Shown here piece after piece: positions 29,972-32,000 of a DNA stretch of 32,000 bases. How positions within the stretch are numbered: the first letter of the stretch is position 1; each line of letters opens with the position of its first letter. A program made the translations under genes and the position numbers. The stretch comes from an uncultured archaeon (GTDB taxonomy: Archaea > Asgardarchaeota > Thorarchaeia > Thorarchaeales > Thorarchaeaceae), in NCBI GenBank assembly GCA_964354495.1, contig CAYHAA010000018.1, forward strand, positions 30,155 to 62,154, in the 5' to 3' direction. The notes beneath the pieces are model-generated. The model was given only the letters and a program-made list of their open reading frames with translations, was not told where the DNA came from and did not search any database.

Positions 29972-31153
29972 ATGGCAGAGCCAACCCCGGCACAAATTCA
30001 CTGGAATCAACTTCGAAAGCAGCATCTTCTGGACGAGAAGGCTTCGGACTGCTATGAGGTAGCCAAGGCGCAGCTGGGGCTGCACTCCACAGACTACTGG
30101 ACACCCTACTTCTCAGTGTGGGCGAGGATAGGCGACTTTGATACAAAGAGGATGTTTGAGTCAATCAACAATGGTAAGAAGCTGGTCAGGACCCATGCAT
30201 TCAGGACAACGCTCCATGTCGTACATATCGACAATCTCTCCATGATCATCAGTGCCACAGGACCTGCTCTGTACAAGGTCTGTAGAAATGACAAATTCAC
30301 GAAAGTTGACCAGCTGAGTGACCGAGAGATTGAGAAGATGCTCAGCCATGTGAGAGATGCACTACAGGATGGTCCCCTGCAGACCAGCAAGTTGAAACGG
30401 ATAGTACCTGATAAGATGCATGTACGCTCTGCTCTGTTGATGCTCATGGCGAGGGGTGAGGTGGTCCGGGCCAGGGCAAATCATGCTCGCAGTAATCTCA
30501 CATCGTACGCTCTATTAGATAAATGGGTCAGTGGTTTCAAGTTGAAGGTGGTAGATGAACAAGAAGCAACAACCAAGTTGATTGGAGGTCACATTGGACG
30601 CTTTGGACCAGTGTCAATCGATGACATTTCATGGTGGCTGAGGCTGACTAAGGCAGCAGTCAAGAGGGCGATCCAGAGCCTCGGGGACGATATTACCACG
30701 ATTTCCCATCGTGACAGAGAGTGCTACATACTCACCTCTGACCATGAGATTGCATCAGCCATCGAAAGACCTGAGGAGGACATGGTATGGTTCCTACCAT
30801 ACGAGGACCATTTTCTCAAGGCGTACATCGATAGAACTGACTTCATCAGTGGGGGCATCCAGGCCAGGCTATCCCCAGCAGATAGGAAGCACTACTGGCC
30901 GTCCAATCCTGAGGCACCACGAGTGATGCCAAGCAGGGCATTAGCAGCTACTGGGGAAGTCAGGCCTTCTATATGGTTGAATGGCAGAGTGGTCGGTCGA
31001 TGGGAGATGGATGATTTGGGAGAGCAAAAGAGCATCGTGACAAGCCTGTACACGCAGGATGCCAGAAATCATCATGAGAGTATTGAACAGATTCGCCGCG
31101 AGCTTGAGGATTTTGTGAACCAAGCATTGCTGCCAATATCAACTGGTAAGTGA
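29972..31153 (+). CDS. AlkZ/YcaQ-family (HTH_42) winged-helix DNA glycosylase-like protein
   Basis: GLHSTDYWTPYFSVWARI, RTHAFRTTLHVV, HIGRFGPVSIDDISWWL, FLPYEDHFLKAY, PSIWLNGRVVGRW. Confidence 0.82.
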   Translation: MAEPTPAQIHWNQLRKQHLLDEKASDCYEVAKAQLGLHSTDYWTPYFSVWARIGDFDTKRMFESINNGKKLVRTHAFRTTLHVVHIDNLSMIISATGPALYKVCRNDKFTKVDQLSDREIEKMLSHVRDALQDGPLQTSKLKRIVPDKMHVRSALLMLMARGEVVRARANHARSNLTSYALLDKWVSGFKLKVVDEQEATTKLIGGHIGRFGPVSIDDISWWLRLTKAAVKRAIQSLGDDITTISHRDRECYILTSDHEIASAIERPEEDMVWFLPYEDHFLKAYIDRTDFISGGIQARLSPADRKHYWPSNPEAPRVMPSRALAATGEVRPSIWLNGRVVGRWEMDDLGEQKSIVTSLYTQDARNHHESIEQIRRELEDFVNQALLPISTGK

Positions 31154-31334: not shown

Positions 31335-31553
31335 ATGAAAAGAATGGGAAAAGGTCTAGCTATATTTGGGCTCTTGCTAATCATAGTAGGAGTCCTTCCT
31401 CTCATCTTGCCGATGATTGGATACGGTTCGTATGCCCTTATGTTCTACCTGGGGTACTACACACTCAATATAGCAGGATACCTTCTTTCTGAGCTCATGC
31501 TCATACTGATTGGAGTCGGTTTCCTGTTTCTTGTTATTGGTGCCCTGACGTAA
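31335..31553 (+). CDS. Small hydrophobic membrane protein
   Basis: 72 aa, two hydrophobic helices, GGAG before ATG. Confidence 0.7.
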   Translation: MKRMGKGLAIFGLLLIIVGVLPLILPMIGYGSYALMFYLGYYTLNIAGYLLSELMLILIGVGFLFLVIGALT

Positions 31554-31578: not shown

Positions 31579-31600
31579 GGGGGGAGTGTTTGCTCCCCTC
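31579..31600. terminator. GC-rich hairpin between convergent genes (possible bidirectional terminator)
   Basis: GGGGGGAG-TGTTTG-CTCCCCTC stem, with an A-run upstream and a T-rich stretch downstream. Confidence 0.5.
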
Positions 31601-31625: not shown

Positions 31626-31988
31626 CTACTTGATTCCTAGCTTTGATGCAATCTTCACAATGATGAAGACCACAAATGCGACTATGATGAAAGTGATCAG
31701 ACTGTCCATGATTGGACCTCCAGAGAGTACGTAATTATCTGGTGCGGGTGGACTGATGGGAGGATATACAATCGCAACCAGTGGCATAATGAAGCTGCTG
31801 ACCAAGGCTCCCACAACATTACCAATGTAGATACCCAAGATGAACGCGACGGCCAGCCCGAGTACCTTATACGCCGAGATGAAGGCAACAAACTCGTTGA
31901 CCAGTCCCTTCGGTGGAGCTGGAGGGGCTGGGGGAGTCAGTAGTCTTCGTATCTCTCTCAATTCTACAAGCATTTCGTTATCTGTCAT
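31626..31988 (-). CDS. mscL: Large-conductance mechanosensitive channel MscL (atypical domain order)
   Basis: S1 helix NEFVAFI, TM1 KVLGLAVAFILGIYIGNVVGALVSSFIMPLV, TM2 GPIMDSLITFIIVAFVVFIIVK; SD GAGG before ATG 31988. Confidence 0.92.
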   Translation of the reverse strand: MTDNEMLVELREIRRLLTPPAPPAPPKGLVNEFVAFISAYKVLGLAVAFILGIYIGNVVGALVSSFIMPLVAIVYPPISPPAPDNYVLSGGPIMDSLITFIIVAFVVFIIVKIASKLGIK

Positions 31989-32000
31989 TCTAACAACCTC

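Follow-up and report, generated by a model that had tools for sequence, protein, structure and literature searches.

The MscL-family gene at the end of the window (the whole 32,000-nucleotide stretch of DNA that was analysed) is predicted to encode, in a Thorarchaeota-like Asgard archaeon, a true subunit of an MscL-family channel, which retains the S1-TM1-loop-TM2 order of the family but lacks the C-terminal bundle helix S3 and instead carries a short amphipathic helix (hereafter, the N-helix) ahead of S1, joined to it by a proline-rich spacer. Many Asgard and TACK archaea share this layout, which is old and strongly constrained. We regard the protein as a variant of a known family in which the N-helix is likely to act as a functional 'N-terminal S3'; its derivation from S3 by permutation is unproven. 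A preliminary description of the locus had proposed that MscL was circularly permuted here, with the cytoplasmic bundle helix moved from the C- to the N-terminus, and knew of no earlier account of such a channel. Full-text literature searches agreed with the latter point, giving no description of an MscL with an N-terminal bundle helix or a permutation, although their coverage was incomplete and novelty is unproven.

The open reading frame is complete, and its 120-residue translation, which starts with MTDNEMLVELREIRRLLTPPAPPAPPKG and ends with ...IVKIASKLGIK*, is identical to the one quoted in the preliminary description. Pfam assigns residues 29-114 to PF01741 (MscL) with an E-value of 6.2e-12 and 46.4 bits (cut-off 27.4). 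The match covers positions 1-95 of the 123-position profile and stops there, leaving the positions for the C-terminal helix (96-123) unmatched. The MscL equivalog models of NCBIfam align with residues 28-118, far under their cut-offs (42 bits versus 176). Among solved structures, the best phmmer matches in the PDB are the fusion of the archaeal MaMscL (4Y7K/4Y7J, E 3.4e-10) and S. aureus MscL (3HZQ, E 6e-10), and the alignments to solved MscLs all begin at S1, around residue 29, and finish at the end of TM2. A Foldseek comparison of the monomer model with the PDB also placed MaMscL (4y7k) first, at an E-value of 0.58, with nothing significant. The genome that contains the window has a single MscL gene, and a hidden Markov model (HMM) of the N-helix located the N-terminal module at no other site in it. 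The gene and the parts of its product are arranged as follows.

31626..31988, minus strand: complete MscL-family open reading frame, 120 codons plus a TAG stop at 31626-31628
31996..32000, minus strand: Shine-Dalgarno-like GAGGT, 8-12 nt upstream of the ATG, also found in the ortholog L002
31938..31982, minus strand: N-terminal amphipathic helix, residues 3-17 (AF2 monomer, invariant residues, hhalign to S3, heptad register)
31905..31937, minus strand: proline-rich, non-helical spacer, residues 18-28 (TPPAPPAPPKG; coil in the AF2 model)
31767..31904, minus strand: amphipathic S1 helix (NEFVAF motif), continuous with the pore-lining TM1, residues 29-74 (start of the Pfam match, alignment to 4y7k/3hzq, AF2)
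31719..31766, minus strand: residues 75-90, an extracellular loop that varies more than any other part of the protein (alignment, AF2)
31641..31718, minus strand: TM2, residues 91-116 (Pfam, PDB alignment, AF2)
31629..31640, minus strand: C-terminal tail LGIK, residues 117-120, without an S3 helix (alignment, classification of termini)

In the AF2 monomer model, which was calculated from a 42-sequence alignment and has a mean pLDDT of 83, residues 3-17, 29-74 and 91-116 are helical and residues 18-28 form a coil. The core follows the family order of an amphipathic S1, a pore-lining TM1 and a lipid-facing TM2, with NEFVAF...LGLAVAFILG aligning from profile position 1 at residue 29. Thus, 28 residues lie ahead of S1 and only 4 follow TM2, which bears out the claim that the C-terminal bundle helix is absent. 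The N-terminal 30 residues on their own matched no family in a Pfam scan. The spacer is constant in length, with 14 residues separating L17 from the S1 glutamate E32 in 170 of 212 distinct sequences (80%), and has a mean proline fraction of 0.38 in the same set. The short C-terminal tail also has a conserved feature, a G-I-(E/K/D) motif in which G118 is nearly invariant and I119 is invariant in a 31-sequence and nearly invariant in the 42-sequence alignment.

The contig ends only 12 nt upstream of the mscL ATG (31989-32000), so the start site was judged with the help of a 98%-identical ortholog from a Thorarchaeota MAG (L002). In this ortholog, an in-frame stop lies 44 codons upstream of the gene, with no Met codon in between, and an A/T-rich box precedes the ATG by ~50-60 nt. 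Ahead of TM1, the only in-frame Met codons are M1 and M6; since the next one is M68, within TM1, every plausible start includes the N-helix. Its residues E9, L10, I13 and L17 are invariant across 78 species-level genomes, in which L10 and L17 are each encoded by all six Leu codons, I13 by all three Ile codons and E9 by both Glu codons, while R14 is retained in 66 of the 78, with all six Arg codons in use. This invariance in the face of full synonymous codon use amounts to purifying selection on the N-terminal protein sequence. The possibility that the helix-coding part is an untranslated leader or an annotation artefact, or that translation starts downstream of it, was ruled out by this codon-level conservation together with the lack of an in-frame start between M6 and M68. 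In RNA libraries, a 224-nt metatranscriptome contig of a 95% relative extends from position -19 to position +204 and takes in the codons for the N-helix, and a second contig spans the gene from codon 38 onward; being contigs, these matches show neither transcription nor a start site.

In profile comparisons, the likeness of the N-helix to canonical S3 is real and falls on functional residues, whereas it is weak by single sequence. When a profile of the N-terminal extension was aligned to the canonical full-length profile with hhalign, residues 3-21 were placed onto positions 127-145, the last 19 positions, which correspond to S3 (P 8.2e-4, score 20.5). None of 200 column shuffles of the query reached this score (mean 8.5, sd 2.1, maximum 16.5), and the reversed extension scored 10.6. 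The reciprocal comparison, of the canonical C-terminal extension with the full-length N-helix family, returned residues 3-20 (P 7.8e-4, score 19.7), again above all 200 shuffles (maximum 17.6). The hhalign probability is only 24-25%, and the common motif comprises about 8 residues of generic coiled-coil composition. Its register superimposes L10, E12, I13, R14, L16 and L17 on L122, E124, I125, R126, L128 and L129 of E. coli MscL. In a COMP-like model of the E. coli helix that is backed by cross-linking, L121/L122, I125 and L128/L129 make up the bundle core, R126 forms a conserved ring of inter-subunit salt bridges with E124 and D127, and the bundle does not come apart when the channel opens but persists, as a 'hanging basket' that acts as a pre-filter (PMC2217331).

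At the level of individual sequences, an HMM of the canonical C-helix built from 14 diverse sequences gave the N-terminus of the window protein 2.5 bits, which ranks it 348 among 39,367 ORFs from all six frames of the genome that it comes from. The notion that MscL itself provides the best C-helix match in the genome was dropped on account of this rank. Conversely, the N-helix HMM matched the C-helix in 4 of 14 canonical MscLs, at no more than 6.3 bits, which is suggestive only. The statement in the preliminary description that the N-terminal helix closely matches the S3 motif therefore holds for profiles, as the alignment of the N-terminus with MscL C-terminal helices lands on S3 in both directions, but not for single sequences.

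Set beside canonical MscL (EcMscL, TbMscL; PF01741), the window protein has the same S1-TM1-loop-TM2 core and a similar accessory element, consisting of a short amphipathic cytoplasmic helix with an L-x-E-I-R-x-L-L pattern on a Pro/Ala-rich tether. The two differ in the placement of this element, which is N-terminal and tethered to S1 in the window protein but C-terminal and tethered to TM2 in canonical MscL, such that the linker follows the helix in the former and precedes it in the latter. They also differ in detail, with an invariant Glu at the g position in the window family and a Leu (L121) in E. coli, and with a charge pair at positions 12 and 15 in place of two acidic residues (E124 and D127). 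The closest solved relative of the core, the archaeal MaMscL (4Y7K, 4Y7J), resembles the window protein in having no C-terminal domain. However, the MaMscL type has no helix at either end, whereas the window protein adds a 28-residue N-terminal module of helix and spacer.

This module is a general property of a large group of archaeal channels. A word-indexed search returned 1,530 relatives, which carry the database name 'MscL family protein', and all full-length members among the best 120 of them contain the motif (M/I)LEEL(R/K)EIRKLLTP, followed by a proline-rich stretch and KG before S1. The label thus conceals a distinct archaeal architecture that at least 230 species-level genomes encode, those of many Asgard archaea among them. 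In the 42-sequence alignment, which reaches down to 38% identity, the N-helix holds 4 of the 12 invariant columns (E9, L10, I13 and L17), and, in ~350 homologs, the N-terminal motif ranks with the best-conserved parts of the protein. An exhaustive profile search of 1.84 billion representatives yielded 5,789 matches at E <= 1e-3. When each GTDB species was represented by a single genome, 230 genomes proved to encode a relative, with the full N-helix architecture present in all of the best 80, whose hosts comprise Thorarchaeota, Promethearchaeota, Hermodarchaeota, Bathyarchaeia, Nitrososphaerales/Thaumarchaeota, Conexivisphaerales and Methanomethylicus. The mapping of the taxonomic range that had been suggested earlier thus leads to Asgard lineages, Bathyarchaeia, Nitrososphaeria and Methanomethylicus. 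Within a sample of the phylum of the window, 84 of 201 genomes gave a match, as did 30 of 43 in its own family, nearly always from profile position 1-3 through to the end. A survey of transporters in five Asgard proteomes reported MscL in MK-D1 only (PMC7997004). The full N-helix architecture was also seen in a MAG labelled 'bacterium' (L060), possibly a mislabelled or misbinned archaeal contig; all other labelled hosts are archaea.

The regions outside the core were classified in 150 representatives of the profile search. The N-helix forms among them have 2-5 residues before the helix, the order helix-linker-core, and 1-5 residues beyond TM2. The C-helix forms, with the motif ...LLxEIRDLLK, have short, non-helical, Lys-rich N-termini and no N-helix. 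A third group, of the Methanosarcina type (e.g. P0191), begins directly at S1 and has a helix at neither end; the absence of the whole C-terminal domain from the archaeal MaMscL was already known (PMC6167328), so that a missing S3 does not exclude a protein from the MscL family. Among the 120, 150 and 80 sequences examined, out of 5,789 matches, there were no forms with both an N- and a C-terminal helix, so that the joint retention of a C-terminal bundle, named in the preliminary description as an outcome that would speak against a relocated helix, was not observed. Nor were the other two adverse outcomes listed there encountered. The same sequences included no tandem, fused or double-helix intermediates.

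Other modules are also attached to MscL cores. In P0130, P0133 and P0131, the helix, the proline-rich spacer and the core are preceded by a long linker and, ahead of it, one or two DUF1508 (YegP-like) domains, indicating that the N-helix can be internal and that the N-terminus tolerates extra cytoplasmic domains. In P0223, P0225, P0241, P0247 and P0248, the core is followed by a zinc-ribbon-like tail (CPxC...CxxC) without a bundle helix, and in P0198 an N-terminal C2H2 zinc finger replaces the bundle helix. The occurrence of DUF1508 domains, a C2H2 finger and zinc ribbons at either end of MscL cores suggests that terminal modules are readily gained. In P0143, a P-loop kinase-like N-terminal fragment (AAA_33/SKI matches) takes the place of the helix and is fused straight to S1, possibly as a chimera created by gene calling or assembly.

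With regard to its function, we think it probable that the N-helix is the N-terminal counterpart of S3, with the five short helices of a pentamer forming a parallel bundle that is tethered to S1 and lies under the pore. They would associate as a short parallel coiled coil on the channel axis, with a core of M6, L10, I13 and L17 that is flanked by an ion pair between E9 and R14. Consistent with this idea, a heptad register with I13 at position d puts M6 at d, L7 at e, E9 at g, L10 at a, R14 at e, L16 at g and L17 at a. E9 (g) and R14 (e) are the two most conserved charged residues of the N-helix and stand in an i to i+5 relationship, and a g-e' inter-helix pair with this spacing is classical in parallel coiled coils. 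The N-helix thus shows the heptad pattern of an aliphatic a/d core with g-e' ion pairs, and both features are conserved. Moreover, the charges at positions 12 and 15 are swapped between relatives, with E..K/R in 138 distinct sequences, K/R..E in 36 and the same charge at both positions in 1. This swap leaves an acidic residue beside R14, as E124 and D127 stand beside R126 in E. coli. Aliphatic a/d residues and peripheral ion pairs around a conserved Arg are likewise found in the parallel five-helix coiled coil of the COMP type that served as the template for S3 of EcMscL (PMC2217331), in comparison with which the N-helix would pack as a pentamer over fewer than two heptads. Against a bundle speak this short length, the Glu instead of Leu at position g, the weak single-sequence similarity to S3 and the reversed polarity, relative to the membrane, that the N-helix would have in it.

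The assembly of the channel was also modelled, using four copies of the window protein and one copy of an 88%-identical ortholog. The predicted complex obtained a score of 0.32 (best control 0.00), classed as 'weak support', and the result concerns assembly in general and contains no information on the N-helix. In the calibration of this score, 58 of 80 solved complexes attained the mark, as did 2 of 110 mismatched pairs; only 7 of the 80, but both mismatches, lay at or below 0.60. The runs agreed in at least 70% of contacts, with a partner pLDDT of at least 56. Since solved MscL pentamers exist, the pass may reflect structures already known to the predictor, and the alignments supplied were our own.

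A bundle of N-helices would take over the tasks ascribed to S3 as a 'hanging basket': it would keep the subunits together and their gating symmetric, and would serve as a pre-filter. However, the N-helix would enter the bundle with a polarity relative to the membrane that is opposite to that of canonical S3, and each helix would be joined to S1 by a rigid proline-rich spacer of ~11 residues. Tethering to S1, and not to TM2, would couple the bundle to the part of the channel that connects it with the bilayer, and through this coupling the bundle could set the gating threshold or limit the expansion of the channel. A polyproline-like strut of 11 residues would span roughly 30 Å. In the E. coli model, R104 lies at a radius of 21.7 Å in the closed and 35.6 Å in the open state (PMC2217331). 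Given that the span of the strut is comparable to the distance of the cytoplasmic TM helix ends from the channel axis, five struts could converge on an axial bundle and would probably stay connected to it on opening. The function of MscL is largely insensitive to the loss of S3, with only mild effects in bacterial MscL (PMC6167328), and the functional consequence of the N-helix may therefore be small.

The resemblance of the N-helix to S3 could have arisen in different ways. A true circular permutation, which is compatible with the bundle mechanism because it concerns origin only, would have involved a tandem duplication and fusion of the gene, followed by a truncation that left S3 of the first copy ahead of S1-TM1-TM2 of the second, making the N-helix S3 by descent. 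Both termini of MscL are cytoplasmic, so that a tandem fusion is topologically allowed, and the reciprocal best match of the two helices at the profile level, with their functional residues superposed, argues in the same direction, as does their strict mutual exclusivity in the sequences examined. We nevertheless regard this route as rather doubtful. Duplication and truncation predict the order linker-helix-core, whereas the order seen is helix-linker-core; this arrangement mirrors the canonical order instead of rotating it, and implies that the proline-rich spacer must have arisen anew. In addition, ~350 sequences yielded no tandem, fused or double-helix intermediate, the match to S3 amounts to about 8 generic coiled-coil residues at a low hhalign probability, the core is closest, among solved structures, to the helix-less MaMscL, and other modules sit at either end of MscL cores. 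What stands of the proposed circular permutation is thus the N-terminal position of an S3-like helix and the absence of a C-terminal one, but not the rotation itself. The last two of these points, and the weak single-sequence similarity to S3, fit a convergent recruitment, in which a helix-less ancestor of the MaMscL type gained a new N-helix together with its proline-rich spacer and came to resemble S3 because a short parallel five-helix bundle imposes the same structural requirement. That helix-less archaeal MscLs exist, that the linker is attached to the other end of the helix than in the canonical layout, and that the g position and the 12/15 pair differ from their E. coli equivalents are all in line with such an origin, which appears quite possible, if just short of probable. 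It has to account for a reciprocal profile match that falls exactly on S3, in functional register and above all 400 shuffles; convergence on an identical L-x-E-I-R-x-L-L string is possible but notable. A tree of the 88-residue core, which has few columns and many open forks, unites 28 of 32 N-helix representatives in one clade (SH-aLRT 96). The cores of two others, P0134 and P0138, group with C-helix and zinc-ribbon forms (SH-aLRT 90), as permutation would allow, and those of P0142 and P0159 with helix-less forms (support 80), such that the supported branches force at least two changes of state. The placement of these four proteins may reflect an exchange of modules, an older origin with losses, or weak resolution of the tree.

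Instead of forming a bundle, the N-helix, the proline-rich stretch or both may serve as a docking motif for a cytoplasmic regulator or scaffold, or as an autoinhibitory or membrane-surface element. Proline-rich stretches and short amphipathic helices are often linear interaction motifs, some relatives have two cytoplasmic DUF1508 domains before the helix, and the range of the architecture is confined to Asgard and TACK archaea. Yet the loci of the window and its ortholog share no conserved neighbour gene, the combination of heptads, g-e' pairs and a match to a known self-associating helix favours homomeric packing, and the composition of the N-helix, rich in E, R and K with a narrow Leu/Ile face, would be atypical of a helix on the membrane surface, making this alternative quite improbable. 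The most far-reaching form of the original proposal holds that MscL underwent a natural circular permutation across Asgard and TACK archaea, with S3 relocated by descent into a pentameric bundle on polyproline struts to S1 that sets the threshold, the expansion limit or the sieving of the channel; taken as a whole, we deem it unlikely. The functional reading, of an N-terminal counterpart of S3, makes no claim as to descent.

MscL provides the reference model of force-from-lipid gating. The role of its S3 bundle, in assembly, symmetry or pre-filtering, and that of S1, as a membrane anchor or gate, are still debated. The N-helix family provides a natural comparison set beside the helix-less archaeal and the C-helix bacterial MscLs. 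If the permutation reading were true, nature would have run the missing 'move the bundle' experiment on the roles of S1 and S3. With its 28 residues, the module is also small and transplantable, which may be of use in the engineering of MscL nanovalves.

In the window, mscL is followed on the opposite strand by two genes, and these neighbours do not indicate an operon partner.

29972-31153, plus strand: AlkZ-like DNA glycosylase, 393 aa (PF06224, E 1.3e-40)
31335-31553, plus strand: 72-aa open reading frame, almost wholly hydrophobic, with 2 or 3 predicted membrane helices and no Pfam family, convergent with mscL
31579..31600, no strand assigned: GC-rich hairpin GGGGGGAG...CTCCCCTC with an A-run upstream and a T-run downstream, between the convergent mscL and 72-aa reading frames (consensus scan only)

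The hairpin looks like a bidirectional terminator. Upstream of mscL, where the window contig breaks off, the ortholog locus (L002, 1-2647) contains no RNA gene or repeat array (tandem repeat) that would explain the break. It has, ~350 bp from mscL, a divergent gene of at least 882 aa, whose product is rich in N-x-S/T motifs, has an N-terminal membrane anchor and is probably a surface protein.
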